Assembly: GCA_000092065.1 (NCBI GenBank)
Contig: CP000589.1
DNA: 64,000 nt
Origin: Ostreococcus lucimarinus
Taxonomy: Eukaryota
Strand: one strand, 5' to 3'
The position numbers were made by a program, and so were the translations under genes. The stretch's first letter is position 1, and each line of letters starts with the position of its first letter. The notes below the pieces were generated by a model. It was not told the origin of the DNA. It searched no databases and saw only the letters and a program-made list of their open reading frames with translations. Shown here piece by piece: positions 2,652 to 32,270 of this stretch.

Positions 2652-3349
2652 GGCGCGCGCGAGTCGGTGCCGTCACACGTCGACGTGTGACGGCACGCGC
2701 GCGCGCGGCGCTCGCCGCGCGATGCGGCGACGACGGCGCTCGCGCGCGCGCGCGCGCGCGGTGGTCATCGCGTGCGTCGTCGCCGCGCTGTGCGCGGGGT
2801 GCGAGGTGCGCGCGCGACGCCGCGGGCGCGCGAAGGCGACGTCGCGAACATCGTTGACGCGACGACGAACGACTGACGACGACGACGCGACGACGGGGGC
2901 TCGCGACGCGCGCAGGGCGCGAGCGGGAATAAAAAACGACGGCAGCGCGCGCACCGCGCGAATTCGCTCGATCGAGAGCTGTCGGTGAAGCGGGAGGCGT
3001 GCGCGGCGAGCGCGCGCGCGGAGCGGCCCGAGTGCGACGACGGGGACGACGCGTCGGTGATGGAGAATTGCGTGTTGAGGTGCGCGAGCGCGAGTTGTTA
3101 CGACGAAGTGTACGGACGCGATGCGCTGGAGGAGGGAGAGGTGGACACGGAGCGTGGACGGGCGTTTCGGTCGTGCGCGAGGGAGGAGTTGAGGCGGTTG
3201 CGCGGGTATCAGACGTTCGGGACGGAGTGACGCGACGACGGCCGTTTCGCGACGCGCGCGTTCGCGCCGTCGCGCGCGCGAACGCGCGCGTAGTCGTAGA
3301 CGTAGTGTAGTGAAGTGAATTAAAATTAGACAGCGGCGCGTGAACAAAT

Positions 3350-23091: not shown

Positions 23092-25281
23092 TCACTTTTG
23101 CAGCGGATTATACGCCATGGCGCTTCGGGATACATTCCGCGTGAGCGTCTGCACGTCTCTCGAGTGCTCCAGCTCGTGCGCCTTTTCCATGATGCTCTCC
23201 ATCGTGGCGTCGGCGTCGGGGAACGATGTGGAAAATCCGAGCATGGAGACGCGATGTTGCTCGTCGGAATTTCTCGGCGAATCCGAGCCAGCTTGAAGCG
23301 AGAGTTGCTTGAGACTCGCGAAAGTATCACTGTCGCCTCGCGCCGATTTATCACGCACCATTGTACTGAATCGATTTATGACTTCGAACACGTTTCGCAC
23401 GCTTTGCCGTCGCGCGCTCTTTTGATTCGACTCGTCAGGCGCCGAAGTCGACAAGACGTCCTTCTCTGCGGCTTCAACTTCGACCAGCGCTGCGTCGACG
23501 ACTTTTGCGGCTTCGAGATGCCGCTCCTCGGCGATCGCGTAGTCTTTGTTCAGCTGTGCGATTTCGTCGTCGAGTGAGCTCGCCCAAGTGTGAGCCTCGT
23601 CGGACATGTTCTTCGTGGCGTTGTATTGCTCTTCGTACACCTTGACCGCAGCGTGCGCCATCTTGCACGCAATCGTCGCTCGTTGCGCCTCCATATAGCA
23701 CACGCGCTCGTCGTCCGCGGCAGCATAATACTCCTCTATGCCGTTTTTGATTTCCTCATCGACGTCATCCAGCAAAGTACGCGTCGACGCCTCGAGCGCG
23801 CGCATCTCAGCCATGCACTGACTCGTGGCGTCATTTAACGAGGCTTCGGCGCGATCGCGTGCGGTGAGCGCGGCGGCGGCCTCGATGTCGAACACTTTAT
23901 CGATCTTCTTCGGTGACTTCCGCCCCACCGCGTCGATAGCGTTCATGAGCGCCTCTTCGAGCCTTGACGTCATCTCGTCGTACGCGGTGAACATAGTCTT
24001 CGTGACGTTGGACGCCCGCAGGGCAAACTCCTTCTGCCTAAACTCCAACAAATCAACGCTCGAGTCCATGGACGTTCGCACGGCTTGACGAAACGTCGTT
24101 AAAATACCCTTTTTGCGGTCGCGCGCGTTCTGCAACGCCGTCCGCGCGGCGTGGATTCGCGCCGAAGCCTCCGCCATGTTCACGTCGGCGGCGAGACGCT
24201 TGTCTTCCAACACTCGCGTGTTCTCAAACTCGCGATCGCGCGTCTCTTCGGCGGCTATAAACGTAGCCCGAGCGCGCGTCGCAGACGCCAGTCGTCTACC
24301 CTTCTTTTCTTTAATCTTCGTCAAGTGTTCACCGATATCCGAATGCGCCCGCTTCGTCGACTTGAGCTCCCAGAGCGCCACCGTGTGCGCGAGCTTCTTC
24401 ACCACGAGCGTCGCTTTGTGCGCCGCAGCGCGCGCATCGCCTTCTCTAGCTCGCGCGACGGTCACCATTACATCCCATGGCATCAATGTCGCCGTCTTCA
24501 CGCGTGGCGGCGTCGATACAACCGCACCGTCGTCCTCGCCGCCGTCTCCGCCGCTCGACCCCGCGCGCGGCTCGTCGTGTTCGCCTTCGCTCTTCGCGCG
24601 CGCCTCCGCTTCCGCCTCTCGCGTCGCCGCTTCCGCCTCGATCACGAGCTCACGCAGCCGCTCTTCCTCCACGCGCGCCGCCGCGAGTCTGCTCTCCATC
24701 ACGCGCGCCGCGGCCAACCGCGTATCGACGCCAATCGACAGAAACCAGTGCGCCTCCTCCTCGTGCTCCACCACCGGCACCGAGCTCGTGAAGCTTCCCC
24801 GTCGTTCGTGCGTCGGCATCCCGTAAATCGTCCCTCCGCCGACCTCGCGCCCGGAAGAATCGCTCTCGAATCCATTCCCGTGCGTCGTCGTCGCGCCGTC
24901 GTCGTCCCGTTCGCCGCCGCCGCCGCCGCCGCCGCTCGCCACCGCGCGTCCGCCGAACAGCCGTCCCCGCCATCCCTCCCCGTGTTCCTCCCCCTCGTCG
25001 TCGCTCAGTCCCGCGAACTTCACCAGCGACACCTTTCGCGTCATTCCTCGCTCCCGTCCCTCCAGATCGCGCTCGCTCCCGCACGGCGTCGTCGCCGCGC
25101 TCGACGCCGCCGTCCCGGTCGAGTGCGAATCGCGCGCGCTCGCCAATTCGCCCGCGATCGACGACGATTTCAGGATCGATCGCGCCGGCAGCGCGTGCGG
25201 GCCCGGCGGCGCGCGCTTCGTCGACGGCGCGCCCGCGCGCGCGCCGTCGCGGTCGATCGCGCGCGCGCACGCCGCGCCCAT
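23092..25281 (-). CDS. Large coiled-coil protein with a disordered Ser/Gly/Glu-rich N-terminus. It is hypothetical.
   Basis: About 430 residues of the central and C-terminal regions form a heptad-rich helix. The ORF-track start at 25335 is a GTG. The first ATG is at 25281. Confidence 0.45.
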   Translation of the reverse strand: MGAACARAIDRDGARAGAPSTKRAPPGPHALPARSILKSSSIAGELASARDSHSTGTAASSAATTPCGSERDLEGRERGMTRKVSLVKFAGLSDDEGEEHGEGWRGRLFGGRAVASGGGGGGGERDDDGATTTHGNGFESDSSGREVGGGTIYGMPTHERRGSFTSSVPVVEHEEEAHWFLSIGVDTRLAAARVMESRLAAARVEEERLRELVIEAEAATREAEAEARAKSEGEHDEPRAGSSGGDGGEDDGAVVSTPPRVKTATLMPWDVMVTVARAREGDARAAAHKATLVVKKLAHTVALWELKSTKRAHSDIGEHLTKIKEKKGRRLASATRARATFIAAEETRDREFENTRVLEDKRLAADVNMAEASARIHAARTALQNARDRKKGILTTFRQAVRTSMDSSVDLLEFRQKEFALRASNVTKTMFTAYDEMTSRLEEALMNAIDAVGRKSPKKIDKVFDIEAAAALTARDRAEASLNDATSQCMAEMRALEASTRTLLDDVDEEIKNGIEEYYAAADDERVCYMEAQRATIACKMAHAAVKVYEEQYNATKNMSDEAHTWASSLDDEIAQLNKDYAIAEERHLEAAKVVDAALVEVEAAEKDVLSTSAPDESNQKSARRQSVRNVFEVINRFSTMVRDKSARGDSDTFASLKQLSLQAGSDSPRNSDEQHRVSMLGFSTSFPDADATMESIMEKAHELEHSRDVQTLTRNVSRSAMAYNPLQK

Positions 25282-25729
25282 GATCGCGATCGGCGCGACG
25301 CGATGTGCCGCCGCGCGAACGATTCGACCGCACACCGATGCGCGCCGTCGGCGCGACGAGCGAGCGCGGCGTCGAGCGCGCGACGACCGCGACGCGCGCG
25401 ACGACGCGCGCGACGACGCGCGCGGGCATGCGTCGAGCGCGGGCGCTCGCGCGCGCGCTCGAACGGATTCGGTTGACGACGAGACGACGAGACGTGTGGA
25501 CGCGCGGCGTCGCGGACGGCGATGGCGCGGGCGCGCGGGACGGCGCGAGCGTCGCGACGAGCGATTCGCTCGACGCGCGCGCGGTCGTGGTGCGTGCGAG
25601 CGCGCGAGGGCGTCGAGGGCGAGGGATCTCTGGTGAACGCGCGCGCGGTTTGATTTTTAAAAGATTGGACGGAGGAAAGACGGGCGACGGGCGAGCGATG
25701 GCGGACTGACGACGACGACGCGCGCGCGA

Positions 25730-28700
25730 ATGATGACGCAGGATCGATTGCGCGCGGGGCTGGCGTACGAGATGAGCAATGGGTGCGCGAACGCGAAGGG
25801 GAAGGCGTTCGACGATTTTCAGAGCTTTCTCACGGCGTCGCTTCGGGAGTTGGAGCGATCGCACGCGTCGCCGATGCTCGCGCACATGGTGCGGGATTCG
25901 ACGGTGTATGGGAATTTGGACGTCGATCGACGACAGCGGTTGCTGCAGAATATGTCGACGGCGCTGCCTGGGGTGATTCAGCGCGGCGAAACGGCGCCGC
26001 CGGCGAGGTCGCCGCAGACGCCGCGAGCGTGGTCGCCGCCGAGCGCTGCGCCGGTGGTCGAGCGCGCGGGGGCGACGTCGGTAGTTTCATCGAACATGGG
26101 TGGTGTCGCGAGCGGGTCGAAGCGGACTCCGGCGGTGGCGGCTGCGAAGACGAAGGAGGACGCGCCGAAGACGAAGGCGCCGACGGTGTCGCGAGATTCG
26201 TCCGAGTTCCCCACCATTATTGTTTTCGATTTAGAGACCACCGGGTTGAGCAAGGAGAAGAGTCGAATCATCGAGCTCGCGGCGCAGTCGCTCTCGGATC
26301 CGTCCGCGGCGTTCAGCACGCTCGTGAATCCCGGTCGGTTTACGATTCCAGCCGCCATCACCTCGCTCACGGGCATCACCAACAGCATGGTGAGCGCTTC
26401 GAACGTGCCGTCGTTCGCGATGGCGGCCGAGCAGTTGGAAGCATTTATTGAAAGCGCCCGCCAGTCGCGCCCGGGGGCGCCGATCTTGCTTGTCGCGCAC
26501 AACGCGCGTCAGTTTGACGCGGCTTTTATGCAGCATGAATACCGTCGTCTTGGGCGTGAGTTGCCGTCGAGTTGGAGATTCTGTGATACCTTGCCGCTCG
26601 CGCGCGCGCTGCTGCGTCCGGAAGGATTGGCAAAGTTCAACATGGATGTCCTACGGGAATACTACGGCGTGTCGATCGATGGTGAAGACACACAAATGCA
26701 CCGCGCAGGGACGGACGCTCGAGTGTTGGCTGAAATCCTCAACAAACTACTCGAGCATCCCAATGCGAAGGACGACGAGCTTGGGTGCTTGGAGAAGTAC
26801 TCATTTTCGCTCGGCGATCCGGGCGCGGGGAGTTTGAAGCGAGCGACCGCGGATGCCAAGTCTGAGAGCGAACGCTCGTCCTACGCGGGCGGCGCGCCGG
26901 GCTGGGGCGGCGGCGGTACAGTGAACTTGAGCGACGGCGAAGAAGCCGACGTCGGTGGTGGATGGGCCGCGGTCGATGAATTCGCAAACGAAGAAAATAT
27001 GGAATTTGAGAGTGACTCGAGCTCGATGTCGTCAAACGATGTGCCTCTTCGAGGTATGCAGAAGCCGTTTTGGGCCGCCGAGGATCCCATCAACGGTATT
27101 CTCCCCGAAACTGTCGACTTTCAGAAACTCGCCGAAATCGCCGCTAAGACGGACACCTCCGAGCTTCGTCTCGACCTAGAGCGATGGAAAGAAACATCGA
27201 TCGAAGCGCTCAAGGATAAAGTCCCGAAGTCGACTATGAAGGCGCTGAAAGCCGAAGGCATCAACACCATCGAAGCCGTATTGCGCAACTGCCCGCGCAA
27301 GTATCAAGAGTACAGCGTTTGGAACAAGTCTCTCGCACAAGGCACACAAGTGACCCTCACTGGGACAGTTCGTTCGATGCAAGTGCGCGATTACATGCGT
27401 GGGCGTGCGATCCCGAACACGGTGTTGGTCGAAGTCGACGTACGCGAGGACGAACTCACGCCGACAGAGGACGATCCGTGGGGCGCAAATAAGCCTCGGT
27501 GCAAAGTTAAAGTGTGGGACTACATTTCGAAGGATGCTCGCGAAGAAATGCCGATCGGTGCTCGGGTGAGTGTCCGCGGCACTTTGGGTACGGGCGATAG
27601 GAACTGCCAGTTCAGCGTGGACGGCGGTCGTGTCGTTCCGATTGCCGCAGATGCGCCGGTATTTGCGTCCGACTCGTCGGAAATTGTCGCCACGTACGCC
27701 AAGCGTGGAGCGATGAGCAATGTTGAGTGGCATCGCGCGGTGAACGCATCGATGGACATTTTCCTAGCGAAGCTTCCCGCCGATCCCATGGAGGTATCGA
27801 TGGGCCGCGATAATCCATTGCTCGCCGAACTCGGATTGCTTTCGCATTCGGAGGCGGTGAAGAATATTCACAGGCCACGAAACGTCGAGGCTGTGGCGCA
27901 AGCGCGAGAGCGATTGGCGTTTGAAGAATTGGTTTTATTACAAGTGGCGCTTCTACAAGAACGCAGTCGTTTACAGGCGCTTCCCGTGTCCGAGTCGACC
28001 GAAGGCGTGTGCATTGTCGGCACTGCTCTCACGGACGAGTTGCGCAGCGAGTTACCGTTTGCGCTTACGCGATCTCAAGAGTCTTCACTCGAAGAAATTT
28101 TGAGCGATATGGCCGGGCCGGCACCGATGTTGCGCCTACTCCAAGGTGATGTGGGGTGCGGTAAGACTGTCGTTGCCGCCATGGCGCTCCTCGCGGCGGT
28201 CGGTGCAGGACATCAAGGCGCGTTCATGGCGCCGACTGAAGTACTCGCCACGCAGCACCACCGCGTGCTCACGGATTTGCTTTCACAAATGCGAGATCCA
28301 CCGAAAGTGGCGTTACTCACTGGTTCAACGAAAACTGCTGAACGTGCGCAAATTCTCGAGGATTTGAATGACGGAAAGATTGGAATTATTGTTGGCACGC
28401 ACGCTTTGATTCACGAAAAAGTTGTATTCAGCTCACTCGGCATCGCCGTCGTCGATGAACAGCATCGTTTTGGCGTGGAGCAACGCGCTGGATTATTGGC
28501 AAAAGGTAAGCTCCCACCGCACATGCTTACCATGAGCGCAACGCCGATTCCGCGCACACTCGCGATGACAAAGTTTGGCGAGATGGCTTTGAGCGTCATC
28601 GACGAGAAACCCGCTGGCCGTTTGCCAATCATCACAACGGTGTGCGGTGTCGACGAGCACTCGCAAGCCTACGATTCGATGTGCGAAGAAGTGAGCCGCG

Positions 28701-29419
28701 GCGGGCAGGCTTACGTCATCTTGCGTCTCGTGAACGAATCCGGATCGTCTCGCATGTCTGAAGTGAAGGGCGCGGAGGAGGAATACGCTCGTCTCGTGAG
28801 CAAGTATCCAAATGTACGATTCGGACTCTTGCACGGGCAGTTGGGCGCGGACGAAAAAGCCGCGGCGCTAGAAAAGTTTAGTTCTGGAGAAACTCAAGCC
28901 CTGGTCGCTACGTCAGTCGTTGAAGTTGGTGTGGACGTGCCGAATGCGAGCGTCATCATCATCGAAGACGCAGACGGTTTCGGTCTCGCCGCGCTTCACC
29001 AGCTTCGAGGTCGTGTCGGACGCGGCGCACGTCAGTCGAAGTGCTTCTTGTTACACTCTCCTGGCGCAGGGGAGAACGCGGAGTTGAAGGGAGATCGCGC
29101 GCGCGACCGTCTTCGTGTGCTCGAGCAATCAAACAACGGCTTCCGAATTGCCGAGAGCGATTTACAGCTCCGCGGCGCTGGCGAGCTCTTCGGCACGAAA
29201 CAAAGCGGCCAGCAGGTGAACCTGTTCCACGCATCGATGTCAACAGATCTCTATTTACTCGAAGCCGCTCGCAAGGCGGCGGCAGAGATGATTTCACGCG
29301 CCTCCTTGCAACAGGAACCACTCCCGGCGCCGGTGACGGTCGCTTTAGAAACGCGGCCCGCGTTGATCCTCGACAACGCCATCATCTCTGGCGGTGCTCA
29401 AGCAGCGGCGACGAATTGA
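25730..29419 (+). CDS. RECG: Fusion protein: an N-terminal DEDDh 3'-5' exonuclease domain (DnaQ/RNase T-like) joined to a full-length RecG DNA helicase.
   Basis: The exonuclease motifs are Exo I FDLETTG, Exo II LVAHNARQFD and Exo III HRAGTDARVL, at about residues 170-345. The RecG part has a wedge-like OB region, then GDVGCGKT, VVDEQHRFG, MSATPIPRT, the C-terminal helicase lobe and QLRGRVGRG. It forms a single uninterrupted 1229-codon ORF starting at an ATG. Confidence 0.8.
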   Translation: MMTQDRLRAGLAYEMSNGCANAKGKAFDDFQSFLTASLRELERSHASPMLAHMVRDSTVYGNLDVDRRQRLLQNMSTALPGVIQRGETAPPARSPQTPRAWSPPSAAPVVERAGATSVVSSNMGGVASGSKRTPAVAAAKTKEDAPKTKAPTVSRDSSEFPTIIVFDLETTGLSKEKSRIIELAAQSLSDPSAAFSTLVNPGRFTIPAAITSLTGITNSMVSASNVPSFAMAAEQLEAFIESARQSRPGAPILLVAHNARQFDAAFMQHEYRRLGRELPSSWRFCDTLPLARALLRPEGLAKFNMDVLREYYGVSIDGEDTQMHRAGTDARVLAEILNKLLEHPNAKDDELGCLEKYSFSLGDPGAGSLKRATADAKSESERSSYAGGAPGWGGGGTVNLSDGEEADVGGGWAAVDEFANEENMEFESDSSSMSSNDVPLRGMQKPFWAAEDPINGILPETVDFQKLAEIAAKTDTSELRLDLERWKETSIEALKDKVPKSTMKALKAEGINTIEAVLRNCPRKYQEYSVWNKSLAQGTQVTLTGTVRSMQVRDYMRGRAIPNTVLVEVDVREDELTPTEDDPWGANKPRCKVKVWDYISKDAREEMPIGARVSVRGTLGTGDRNCQFSVDGGRVVPIAADAPVFASDSSEIVATYAKRGAMSNVEWHRAVNASMDIFLAKLPADPMEVSMGRDNPLLAELGLLSHSEAVKNIHRPRNVEAVAQARERLAFEELVLLQVALLQERSRLQALPVSESTEGVCIVGTALTDELRSELPFALTRSQESSLEEILSDMAGPAPMLRLLQGDVGCGKTVVAAMALLAAVGAGHQGAFMAPTEVLATQHHRVLTDLLSQMRDPPKVALLTGSTKTAERAQILEDLNDGKIGIIVGTHALIHEKVVFSSLGIAVVDEQHRFGVEQRAGLLAKGKLPPHMLTMSATPIPRTLAMTKFGEMALSVIDEKPAGRLPIITTVCGVDEHSQAYDSMCEEVSRGGQAYVILRLVNESGSSRMSEVKGAEEEYARLVSKYPNVRFGLLHGQLGADEKAAALEKFSSGETQALVATSVVEVGVDVPNASVIIIEDADGFGLAALHQLRGRVGRGARQSKCFLLHSPGAGENAELKGDRARDRLRVLEQSNNGFRIAESDLQLRGAGELFGTKQSGQQVNLFHASMSTDLYLLEAARKAAAEMISRASLQQEPLPAPVTVALETRPALILDNAIISGGAQAAATN

Positions 29420-29578: not shown

Positions 29579-30818
29579 ATGTCCACCATGTCCGCTTCCC
29601 TCCGCACCACGTCAACCGTCAACTTGCGCGCCTGCACGTACGTTTTCGGTCGCGTTAGCGCGTCGCGTCGCGCGTCACGACGTCGCGCACGTCGAGTAAT
29701 CCGCCTTATCCGCCGAGGGCCGACAAACAGGGCGCTTACGACAGTGTCGCGGTGTCTTCTCGGTGCAGTGACGGCGCGATCACGAAGCGATAAAGTATAC
29801 TGACGATGAACCGCGTTTTCGTGTGATACGCAGGACCCGACGCGCTAGCGTTCGAGCGTCCCGCTCGGTCACCGTGCGCGCCGCCGCCGACTACTCGCCG
29901 AAGAAGGCCTTCTTCTTCCCGGGACAAGGCGCGCAAACGGTCGGCATGGCGAAGGAGCTGTGCGAAGAGTGCCCCGCGGCGAAGGCGATGTTTGACACCG
30001 CGTCCGGCGTGCTCGGGTACGACTTGCTCGATGTGTGCGTCAACGGCCCGGCGGAGCGCTTGAACTCGACGGCGGTTTCCCAGCCGGCGATTTACGTGTC
30101 TTCTTTGGCGGCGCTCGAAAAGATGAAGATGTCGGACGAAGGTAAGGCGATGATCGACTCCATCGACGTCGCCGCGGGCTTGTCTCTCGGCGAGTACACG
30201 GCTTTGACCTTTGCCGAGGCGTTGTCTTTCGAAGACGGCTTGAAGCTCGTGAAGATTCGCGGTGAGTCCATGCAAGAGGCTGCCGATGCCACGCCCTCCG
30301 GTATGGCGTCCGTCATCGGCCTCTCCGCGGATAAGGCCGAAGAACTCGCCGCACGCGCCGCCGCCGAGTCCGGGGCGCCGTGCTCGGTTGCCAACTACTT
30401 GTGCAACGGTAACTACGCCGTGTCCGGCGCCATCCCGGCTATCGACAAGGTTGAAGAAATCGCCAAGCCGGAATTCAAGGCGCGTATGGTCGTGCGTCTC
30501 GCCGTCGCCGGTGCGTTCCACACCGACTTCATGGCCCCGGCCGCGGACAAGCTCAAGGCTGCGCTCGAAGCGACACCGATTAAGGAGCCGCGCATCCCGG
30601 TCATTTCCAACGTCGACGTCAACCCGCACACGGACGCCGCGAGCATTCGCGCCACGTTGGCGAAGCAGCTCACCAACCCGGTGCAATGGGAAACCACGAT
30701 GACCACGCTCCTCGGTAAGGGCTTGGAGTCTGCGACGGAAGTTGGTCCGGGCAAGGTGATCAGCGGTATCATGAAGCGCGTGGATAAGGCGTTTGCGTGC
30801 GACAACTTCACCGTTTAA
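29579..30818 (+). CDS. FABD: Malonyl-CoA:ACP transacylase (FabD/MCAT), plastid type. I propose a two-exon model: join(29579..29637, 29834..30818).
   Basis: FFFPGQGAQ and GLSLGEY (GxSxG) are present, plus the rest of the MCAT fold. The long ORF's own start at 29823 is a GTG, not an ATG. An upstream ATG exon (MSTMSASLRTTSTVNLRAC) ends at an AC|GTACGT donor and joins in frame at a ...gtgatacgcag|G acceptor. Together these give a Ser/Thr/Arg-rich transit peptide of about 44 aa. Confidence 0.75.
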
Positions 30819-30897: not shown

Positions 30898-31959
30898 TTA
30901 CTTGACTTGTCTGATTTTGCACTCGCGCACGAGCGGAAATTTTGTTTTGATGGCTTGCGCGATGGAGAAGGCGAGCGCTTTCGGTCCTCTAAACTTCAAC
31001 ACGCACACGCCCCTTTCGAGCGACTCCACGCTCGCCTCGCCCCCGTAGCTCGCGATAGACTTTCGAAGCTTTTCCAAATGCCCCTCGATCGTCTCGATCG
31101 TCATCTCTTCCAATTCACCGCTCACGTCGACGACTTCTTCCACGGCGTCGCCGAATTTTTGCTTTAAAAGTTTTTCGATCCCCCCCTTCATCGTCGCCGA
31201 CGACGACGCGCACGTCCCGCACGCCCCATTCAACCGCACGACGATGATCTTGCCTTCAATCTTCACGAGCTCGACGTTACCACCGTCGGCGACCAAATAC
31301 GGTCGCACCTCGTCGAGCGCTTCGTCCACGTTTTCCATCGTCGGCGGCAACTTCGGCGACTCGTCCACCGCGTCCGCGTTCTCCTCTTTCGCCGCCTCCG
31401 CGAACGGACTCACCACGCTCGCGCTCGCATCCGCGCCCTCGATTCCCGTCGCGCTCACCTCCGCCTCCGCCGTCCCGCTCGCCGCCCCGTCCTCCGCGTC
31501 CCGCGCCCCGTTCGCCCCCCCCGTCTCCCCCTCTCCCAGCGCCTCCCGCCACCGTCGCGCCTCCGCGCGCAGCGTCGCTCGCGTCGCCATCGCCGCGTTC
31601 CGAAACGCCATCACGCGCGCCGTGCGCGCGCCCTCGCCGTCCCGCGCTCGCGCCGCCCGCAGCGCCGTCGCCACGTTCGTCGCGTAGTCCACCCCCGTGC
31701 ACGTCCCTCGCGCGTCGAACGTCGCGAACACCCCCGCCGGCGCGTCGCGCGCGTACAGTTCCAGCCACGCGTCGACGCTCGCGCGCGCCGTGCCGTCCTC
31801 GGCGAGCGCTCGCGGCGCGCGCGCTCGCGCCGTCGCGCGCCGACGGTCCGCGCGCGCGCGCACGCGCCGCGCCGCGACGCGCGCGTCGCGCGCGCGCGTC
31901 GGCGCGCGCGCGGGACCGCGCGACGCGACGCGCGCGTCGGCGCCTCGCGTCGCGCGCAT
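30898..31959 (-). CDS. NFU: Chloroplast-type NFU (NifU-like) iron-sulfur scaffold protein with an extended N-terminal region.
   Basis: The NFU domain with CxxC (LNGACGTCASSS) is followed by a degenerate second NFU domain, as in plant NFU1-3. About 200 residues precede the NFU domain. The ORF-track start at 32163 is a TTG. The first ATG is at 31959. Confidence 0.75.
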   Translation of the reverse strand: MRATRGADARVASRGPARAPTRARDARVAARRVRARADRRRATARARAPRALAEDGTARASVDAWLELYARDAPAGVFATFDARGTCTGVDYATNVATALRAARARDGEGARTARVMAFRNAAMATRATLRAEARRWREALGEGETGGANGARDAEDGAASGTAEAEVSATGIEGADASASVVSPFAEAAKEENADAVDESPKLPPTMENVDEALDEVRPYLVADGGNVELVKIEGKIIVVRLNGACGTCASSSATMKGGIEKLLKQKFGDAVEEVVDVSGELEEMTIETIEGHLEKLRKSIASYGGEASVESLERGVCVLKFRGPKALAFSIAQAIKTKFPLVRECKIRQVK

Positions 31960-32270
31960 CGTCGGCGCGTCGCGCGGCGTCGCGCGGCGTCGGCGTGTGC
32001 GGCGCCATCGCGCGACGCGAGTCTTCGACGCGCGAGCGCGCGCGAGCGAGCGCGAGCGCGCGAGCGACGCGCGAGCGAACGCGCGAGCGAACGCGCGAGA
32101 CGCCGCGGCGCCGACGCGACGCGCGCGCGCGAGAGGGCGACGACGCGAGAGGCGCGAAAACAAGATCGATCGCGAACGTTCGATCGACGACGCGCGCGCG
32201 GCGAGGGCTCGACGCTGAACACGAGGCGAAACGCGCGAAAGCGTCGTGAAACGCGCGCGCGCGACGCGAG

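Follow-up and report, generated by a model that had tools for sequence, protein, structure and literature searches.

A predicted DPD1-like exonuclease domain within a cyanobacterial-type RecG helicase of Ostreococcus lucimarinus

A 64,000-nucleotide stretch of Ostreococcus lucimarinus contig CP000589.1 (assembly GCA_000092065.1), referred to here as the window, contains an open reading frame (ORF) at positions 25730..29419 that combines a 3'-5' exonuclease of the DEDDh class with a RecG DNA helicase. Comparison with homologues indicates that the exonuclease is DPD1-like and that it is inserted between the N-terminal helical module and the wedge of a cyanobacterial-type RecG, rather than appended to the RecG amino terminus. 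The gene probably has a second, upstream exon encoding a putative organelle-targeting presequence, and the two enzymes are connected by a linker that is under strong purifying selection.

The exonuclease-RecG fusion itself is already known. Sloan et al. (Plant Cell 2024; PMC12292046) reported a DPD1-like exonuclease fused to RecG in Micromonas, Ostreococcus and Volvox, noted that Cymbomonas has both DPD1-MutS1 and DPD1-RecG, and found the RecG fusion mostly in algae that have lost MutS1. That paper asserts DPD1 orthology and covers the fusion in one sentence; a 2025 review (PMC12079397) repeats it, and an earlier paper (PMC3542137) lists O. tauri among the green algae with recG and makes no mention of an exonuclease. 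A first-pass annotation of the window, made from the sequence alone, had not recognized the architecture. Its implied novelty fails because the architecture is already annotated, both in the 2024 and 2025 publications and in the O. tauri orthologue in GenBank. In the literature searched, nothing was found on how the exonuclease is inserted, on the linkers or on the gene structure. The additions to the published fusion are a gene model with two exons and a presequence, the topology of the insertion and the strongly constrained second linker, all of which are useful for the design of constructs or mutants.

Two enzymes in one reading frame

The ORF is unbroken on the plus strand and encodes 1229 amino acids; residue numbers below refer to it, and all parts of the gene lie on this strand. 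Pfam RNase_T (PF00929) matches residues 164-337 over its full length (model positions 1-164 of 164; E=5e-23; 82.8 bits versus a cut-off of 24), and NCBIfam DnaQ, PolC and DEDD models span residues 161-345. The other Pfam matches are DEAD (781-945), Helicase_C (989-1098) and RecG_dom3_C (1135-1191), and the NCBIfam RecG models cover residues 477-1194 with a best E value of 2.6e-201 and alignment starts that vary over residues 477-510. The exonuclease motifs are FDLETTG (166-172), HNARQFD (257-263) and HRAGTDARVL (324-333), and the helicase motifs are GDVGCGKT (motif I, 806-813), DEQH (motif II, 909-912) and QLRGRVGRG (motif VI, 1091-1099). Every exonuclease and RecG motif quoted in the first-pass annotation stands where it had been placed. 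This domain content is far beyond chance. The ORF and the Pfam and NCBIfam matches bear out the claim of a complete DEDDh exonuclease and a full-length RecG in a single frame, and the hidden Markov model (HMM) scan confirms the DEDDh identity through the full-length RNase_T match.

Homologues were collected by an exhaustive search of 1.84 billion representatives and a second search of 5.8 billion proteins, and the top-scoring proteins of both are all exonuclease plus RecG. Classification with segment queries identified at least 60 near-full-length proteins with an exonuclease followed by a RecG core, and, within the top 150, about 17 distinct representatives at 50% identity have the fusion. 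The nearest relatives with a name come from O. tauri, CEF99124.1/XP_022839657.1 ('Helicase, C-terminal') and OUS48841.1 ('DNA helicase RecG'); the O. tauri cluster representative is 82% identical over the full length of the fused protein. The exact 1229-residue product also occurs on several marine metagenome contigs, for three of which the DNA was returned.

Selection was evaluated by segment in a codon-level comparison with the O. tauri orthologue. The ratio of nonsynonymous to synonymous substitution rates (dN/dS) is 0.076 for the exonuclease, 0.067 for the linker that follows it (linker 2), 0.054 for the wedge region and 0.035 for the helicase core. The N-terminal module (0.37), linker 1 (0.63) and the short C-terminal tail (residues 1196-1229 with the stop codon, 29315..29419; 0.19) have higher values. 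Linker 2 consists of residues 346-480 (26765..27169), is mostly predicted to be disordered and is 78% identical to its O. tauri counterpart. Because it is as constrained as the catalytic domains, linker 2 is functional coding sequence and not accidental read-through. There is no stop codon or intron between the domains, as the first-pass annotation had proposed, and the exonuclease and RecG are accordingly predicted to be translated as one chain.

An artefactual fusion produced by chance read-through of adjacent genes, misassembly or an unrecognized intron or stop is effectively refuted. High-GC genomes do give long spurious ORFs, many of which overlap the fused locus, and a rough estimate puts the chance of a stop-free 135-codon linker at about 2%. 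Against this reading, the identical protein is encoded on at least three independent metagenome contigs with DNA, the architecture recurs in the O. tauri reference genome and in dozens of divergent lineages, and linker 2 is under strong purifying selection at the protein level.

Candidates for a stand-alone DPD1 in close relatives were considered and rejected. These short exonuclease-only matches (P0316 and P0318; 56-62% identity) come from contigs of 195-680 kb whose loci contain RNase_T, DEAD, Helicase_C and RecG_dom3_C serially on one strand. Because all four domains occur in series, the two proteins are fragments of fused genes broken by frameshifts or introns.

The exonuclease domain extends over residues 161-345 (26210..26764). 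In an alignment of 70 fused and DPD1 sequences, its catalytic residues D167, E169, D263, H324 and D329 are unchanged in 66-69; the remaining entries are truncated or frameshifted. The same residues hold in fused proteins with identity as low as about 35%. Among named proteins other than RecG, the domain is most similar to angiosperm entries annotated as 'exonuclease DPD1, chloroplastic/mitochondrial' (E values of 1e-32 to 1e-26, with 40-45% identity across 92-95% of the query), and bacterial DnaQ-like proteins rank well behind them (E~1e-15). Of the solved structures, the proofreading domains of PolC and DnaQ are the nearest by sequence, and TREX2 matches weakly. The ranking among named non-RecG matches thus points to a DPD1-like exonuclease. 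Both enzymes keep intact catalytic motifs and are predicted to be active. It is hardly credible that the exonuclease is catalytically silent and acts as a DNA-end-binding or regulatory module of RecG: no activity is on record for any DPD1-RecG protein (PMC12079397), but the five DEDDh residues are invariant, the domain is under purifying selection (dN/dS 0.076) and the Pfam model is matched from end to end.

Insertion of the exonuclease into a cyanobacterial-type RecG

The first-pass annotation described an exonuclease followed by a canonical RecG, an order that is not borne out. The first ~110 residues of the ORF are a RecG N-terminal module, which places the exonuclease inside the helicase. 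Residues 5-112 (25742..26065) alone give a weak match to positions 12-122 of NF008170, the long form of RecG (E=7e-4), and the model continues with its positions 124-799 over residues 482-1191. No Pfam family matches residues 5-112. The module carries the motif L-x-x-G-L-x-Y-E-x-x-x-G-x-x-N-A-x-G-x-x-F-x-x-F-L. A profile built from the fused proteins matches the extreme amino terminus of 18 RecGs that have no exonuclease, including four Selaginella RECG entries ('ATP-dependent DNA helicase homolog RECG, chloroplastic') and proteins of 791-872 residues, and it matches none of 120 exonuclease-only or DPD1 proteins. In a joint alignment with Selaginella RECG and unfused RecGs of 800-870 residues, fused and unfused proteins align through the module and then again from the start of RecG domain 1, and a block of 370-400 residues is found in the fused proteins only. 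The unfused protein P0264 has the module at residues 10-98 with the Pfam wedge directly after it from residue 119. The order N-terminal module, exonuclease, helicase is seen in 77 of the 77 proteins that have all three parts. These comparisons support a topology in which the exonuclease is inserted between the helical module and the wedge.

Prokaryotic RecGs were surveyed in GTDB with one genome per species. Among the best 80 of at least 600 RecG loci, the module aligns only in Cyanobacteriota (Synechococcus, Cyanobium, Prochlorococcus, Vampirovibrio and Gastranaerophilales), one unclassified metagenome-assembled genome (MAG) and two Chloroflexota MAGs. In RecGs of other phyla the alignment begins only at about residue 95-130. 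A prokaryotic origin of the fusion was considered, and no insertion is seen in any of these best 80 loci. Because the module is shared by cyanobacterial and plant RecGs, the host protein is the cyanobacterial-type RecG inherited by plants.

The remainder of the RecG part consists of domain 1 with the wedge, which has an oligonucleotide/oligosaccharide-binding fold (OB-fold; residues 481-700, 27170..27829), and the superfamily 2 (SF2) helicase core of two RecA lobes with the C-terminal translocation in RecG (TRG) region (residues 701-1195, 27830..29314). The RecG part matches the sequence of Thermotoga maritima RecG in the PDB (1gm5; E=2.8e-112), and a 693-residue RecG (9wm0) is a further PDB sequence match. 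The Pfam RecG_wedge HMM stayed short of E<=0.01 on the fused ORF and so did not detect the wedge region cited by the first-pass annotation. A Foldseek search of the whole AlphaFold2 model against the PDB gives a list dominated by helicases, and in a superposition with chain A of 1GM5, a RecG-junction complex, the aligned part extends over 725 columns (729 target residues; E=2.7e-37). Because of this superposition a wedge domain is predicted to be present despite the silent HMM; a beta-rich segment lies in the wedge region at model residues 520-651. The TRG region is identified by RecG_dom3_C (PF19833; E=2e-11; 44.1 bits versus a cut-off of 26.8) and contains LRGAGELFGTKQSG at residues 1147-1160. 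Two NCBIfam equivalog cut-offs were narrowly missed, that of the best model, NF008168, with 670.9 versus 718 bits and that of TIGR00643 with 589.6 versus 659.4 bits. These cut-offs are tuned for bacterial proteins. We attribute the shortfall to divergence of the eukaryotic protein and to the inserted block, not to the loss of a domain.

The helicase motifs are intact in the O. lucimarinus protein and in most of the other fused proteins, and the motif II variants DEEQRFG, DDEQRFD and DELQHAG occur in a few that are very divergent. Ala-rich divergent fused proteins such as P0034 and P0035 carry GDFGCGKS, DDEQRFD or DELQHAG, and QLRDCVGRG together with an intact DEDDh set, which suggests that the helicase may be weakened in these lineages. 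In the Micromonas-like proteins P0014, P0026 and P0032 an extra acidic low-complexity insertion of ~95-130 residues lies within the helicase core, between DEQHRFG of motif II and PHMLAMSATPIPRT; it is absent from the O. lucimarinus and O. tauri proteins.

The AlphaFold2 model, in which residue n corresponds to ORF residue n+4, has a mean predicted local distance difference test score (pLDDT) of 76.5 and a predicted template modeling score (pTM) of 0.58. The N-terminal module (model residues 1-83) is a confident four-helix unit with pLDDT 84-92, the exonuclease (150-356) is confident with pLDDT ~85-95, and RecG is ordered from about residue 471. The segments 84-144 (linker 1) and 358-442 (linker 2) are modeled as disordered with pLDDT below 50. 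The exonuclease is thus predicted to be a folded domain on two flexible tethers. Linker 1 (residues 113-160, 26066..26209) is of low complexity, has pLDDT 24-44 and differs in length among homologues. Linker 2, which no Pfam or NCBIfam family matches, contains two motifs, SFSLGDP at residues 358-364 (26801-26821) and PFWAAEDPINGILPETVDF at residues 446-464 (27065-27121), and both are kept across Ostreococcus, Bathycoccus-like and Micromonas-like homologues. The motifs may be a docking site or a partner-binding peptide.

A two-exon gene with an N-terminal presequence

The ATGATG taken as the start by the ORF finder lies within a candidate intron. This intron (25590..25741, 152 nt, phase 0) has a GTGCGTG donor at 25590, an ACTGAC branch-point signal at 25705-25710 and a CAG acceptor at 25739-25741. 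It would join exon 1 (25428..25589), 54 codons from ATG 25428 that end in '...DARAVV', to exon 2, which opens with 'DRLRAGLAYE' at 25742. The frame of exon 1 is that of a 134-residue ORF at 25305..25709. In O. tauri the annotated gene is 3966 nt long with 1284 codons, in two exons separated by one 111-nt intron, and its junction reads '...SARVV', GTGCGTG...ACTGAC...CAG, 'HRLRAGVEYE' at the same codon position as in O. lucimarinus. The O. tauri exon 1 encodes 50 residues and ends at the point homologous to '...DARAVV'. Two more Ostreococcus-clade contigs have the same donor, branch-point and acceptor signals and the same phase, with introns of ~226 and ~178 nt whose sequence is otherwise unconserved. 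The comparison comprises these four lineages, locus L089 having been left out. From the conservation of signals and phase we infer that 25590-25741 is spliced. The ATG at 25730 has no counterpart in O. tauri and two other clades and is almost certainly ruled out as the start codon. An in-frame alternative at ATG 25338 would extend exon 1 to 84 codons; ATG 25428 is the preferred start, as it fits the O. tauri spacing to the divergent neighboring gene. An alternative untargeted isoform initiated at the intronic ATGATG, which has no equivalent in O. tauri or the other clades, was given no weight.

Exon 1 encodes an Arg/Ala/Thr-rich presequence with a net charge of +7 over its first 30 residues and a dN/dS of 0.75 versus O. 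tauri, a value typical of targeting peptides. By charge and composition, the amino termini of orthologues are net positive in all lineages examined, the very divergent ones included. The composition and the orthology together suggest organelle targeting. The first-pass annotation had seen no resemblance between the amino terminus and transit peptides because the 5' exon was overlooked and ATG 25730 is intronic; the predicted spliced protein begins with a net-positive presequence resembling those of the orthologues.

A protein of the nucleus or cytosol that starts at ATG 25730, with the upstream 'exon' not part of the gene, is very unlikely. The long ORF does own this ATG, and the resulting amino terminus would be a folded helical module and not a transit peptide. 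However, the codon is not conserved in the other three lineages, the splice signals and phase stay the same across introns of different length (111, 152, ~178 and ~226 nt), all orthologues begin with net-positive presequences, and plant RecG is cyanobacterial-type and organelle-targeted.

The 111-nt O. tauri intron (positions 3151-3261 of locus L001) is in frame and apparently stop-free, as a comparison with the 1317-residue protein P0005 illustrates. Prokaryote-style gene callers therefore seem to read through it and to yield proteins that are ~33-37 residues too long. Such read-through of picoeukaryote introns calls for caution in the use of metagenome-derived protein catalogues. A separate feature of this part of the window is the GC-rich (~68%) intergenic and 5' region at 24100-25900, which is full of long overlapping spurious ORFs on both strands. 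Its Arg/Ala-repeat ORFs, for example 24650..25885 (minus strand, 411 residues) and 24151..25476 (plus strand, 441 residues), are composition artefacts and not genes.

The gene order porin, coiled-coil gene (minus strand), fused gene, FabD and NifU is common to the window and O. tauri contig CAID01000009.2. In the window, the divergent coiled-coil protein (23092-25335, minus strand; 729-747 residues, no Pfam match) has candidate start codons ~55-145 bp from exon 1. On the other side are a FabD malonyl-CoA:ACP transacylase with a transit-like amino terminus (29823-30818, plus strand) and a NifU-domain protein (30898-32163, minus strand). FabD also adjoins the fused gene on the Micromonas-like contig L090, where ClpP is downstream. 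Bacterial contamination or recent horizontal gene transfer was considered and is ruled out by the spliceosomal intron, the eukaryotic neighbors and the synteny with O. tauri chromosome 9. The fused gene is an Ostreococcus nuclear gene that is conserved across many green-algal lineages.

Proposed function and relation to known systems

RECG1 of plant organelles polices recombination between short repeats. We favor, with moderate confidence, a similar role for the algal protein: an organelle-type RecG that has carried an inserted DPD1-type exonuclease since early chlorophyte evolution and that functions in organellar recombination surveillance. The protein would be imported into the plastid and/or the mitochondrion, as are land-plant RECG1 and DPD1. 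The RecG wedge would bind a branched intermediate such as a displacement loop, a 3' flap or a regressed or fused fork, and duplex pumping would peel off the 3'-ended strand. The exonuclease, held beside the wedge on tethers of ~50 and ~100 residues, would capture the freed 3'-OH single strand and degrade it. Ectopic strand invasions and 3' flaps would thereby be removed irreversibly, with no re-invasion and no priming of replication.

Precedent for a link between the two activities comes from bacteria, where RecG and 3' exonucleases are genetically linked, both clearing 3' flaps and preventing illegitimate re-replication. RecG is essential in E. coli lacking 3' single-stranded DNA exonucleases (PMC3542137), and 3' exonucleases process the 3' flaps arising from fork fusion (PMC6393302). 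The pairing of branch remodeling with resection of a 3' end, proposed in the first-pass annotation, is reasonable; the coupling of the two activities within the fused protein is the part that we infer.

A more specific version of this scheme is a tentative proposal, somewhat less probable than the role itself. The exonuclease would be looped out, the linker-2 motifs (SFSLGDP and PFWxAxDPINGxxPExxDF) would gate the nuclease as docking or regulatory elements, and the single-chain unwind-and-trim enzyme would functionally replace the lost MutS1-DPD1 in chlorophyte organelles.

Several points weigh against recombination surveillance by unwinding and trimming. The documented role of DPD1 is bulk degradation of organelle DNA and not recombination control, and the review that repeats the fusion says that its function 'remains to be explored' (PMC12079397). 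The drift of motif II in a few very divergent homologues with an intact DEDDh set is a hint that, of the two activities, the exonuclease may be the harder to dispense with. The position of the exonuclease relative to the wedge depends on a model with a pTM of only 0.58, and the strongly conserved linker-2 motifs are not accounted for by an unwind-and-trim mechanism.

In an unlikely alternative, the protein is a machine for organelle DNA disposal or salvage by bulk 3'-5' degradation, for example in phosphate recycling or uniparental inheritance, and RecG is mainly the motor or targeting module that opens branched or duplex DNA and feeds the nuclease. The nearest relative of the exonuclease, DPD1, breaks down organelle genomes and helps with phosphate use (PMC12079397). 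The DEDDh residues are invariant, and motif II of the helicase has drifted in some of the divergent fused proteins. The strongest purifying selection, however, falls on the helicase, wedge and TRG regions (dN/dS 0.035-0.054), and permanent attachment of a bulk nuclease to an essential maintenance factor would be dangerous. The matches from O. tauri and other fused lineages also contain no second RecG-like cluster, a weak argument that the fused protein has to fill the housekeeping RecG role as well, as whole genomes were not searched. Recombination surveillance remains the preferred role.

A natural single-chain RecG-exonuclease is a ready-made test of mechanistic coupling between the two activities. 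O. tauri is genetically transformable, which makes such a test feasible.

Among known systems, E. coli RecG with ExoI, ExoVII and SbcCD has the same two activities, acts on the same intermediates and limits 3' flaps and PriA-dependent over-replication. The E. coli enzymes differ in being separate proteins whose link is genetic only, and bacterial RecG has no nuclease domain. WRN and Firmicute DinG likewise place a 3'-5' DEDD exonuclease and an SF2 DNA helicase on one chain, but their helicases are RecQ or XPD-like, their exonucleases are truly N-terminal and the fusions arose independently. In WRN the exonuclease belongs to the DEDDy class, not to DEDDh. The algal exonuclease has the Exo III His of the DEDDh class, and no RecQ, RQC or HRDC match was found in the Pfam, NCBIfam and fold searches. 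DinG models match only the exonuclease segment, residues 164-343, and do so weakly, and the helicase is RecG; exonuclease plus DinG-like architectures occur among the distant matches.

The DPD1-MutS1 fusions of non-seed plants and some algae have recruited the same exonuclease module to an organellar ATPase that recognizes DNA structures, and they differ in having MutS1 as the partner and the exonuclease in an N-terminal extension. DPD1 itself (Arabidopsis AT5G26940) has identical DEDDh residues and has the signatures TLVNP, AHNAR-FD and W-F-DTLPL in common with the fused exonuclease. It is a free protein of ~330 residues with its own transit peptide, whereas the algal exonuclease is embedded in RecG. 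DPD1 degrades bulk organelle DNA in pollen and senescing leaves, in both plastids and mitochondria, and aids phosphate use (PMC12079397).

Land-plant RECG/RECG1 (Arabidopsis RECG1, Physcomitrium RECG and Selaginella XP_024516981.1) is built from the same module, wedge, SF2 core and TRG region, and organelle targeting with a role in recombination surveillance is expected for it. It lacks the exonuclease; its module is followed by non-exonuclease sequence and then by the wedge. The closest system is the green-algal DPD1-RecG fusion of Sloan et al. (2024), which belongs to the same gene family. In O. tauri this gene has the same neighbors, the same intron position and 82% identity; the O. lucimarinus protein is its orthologue, and nothing essential differs between them.

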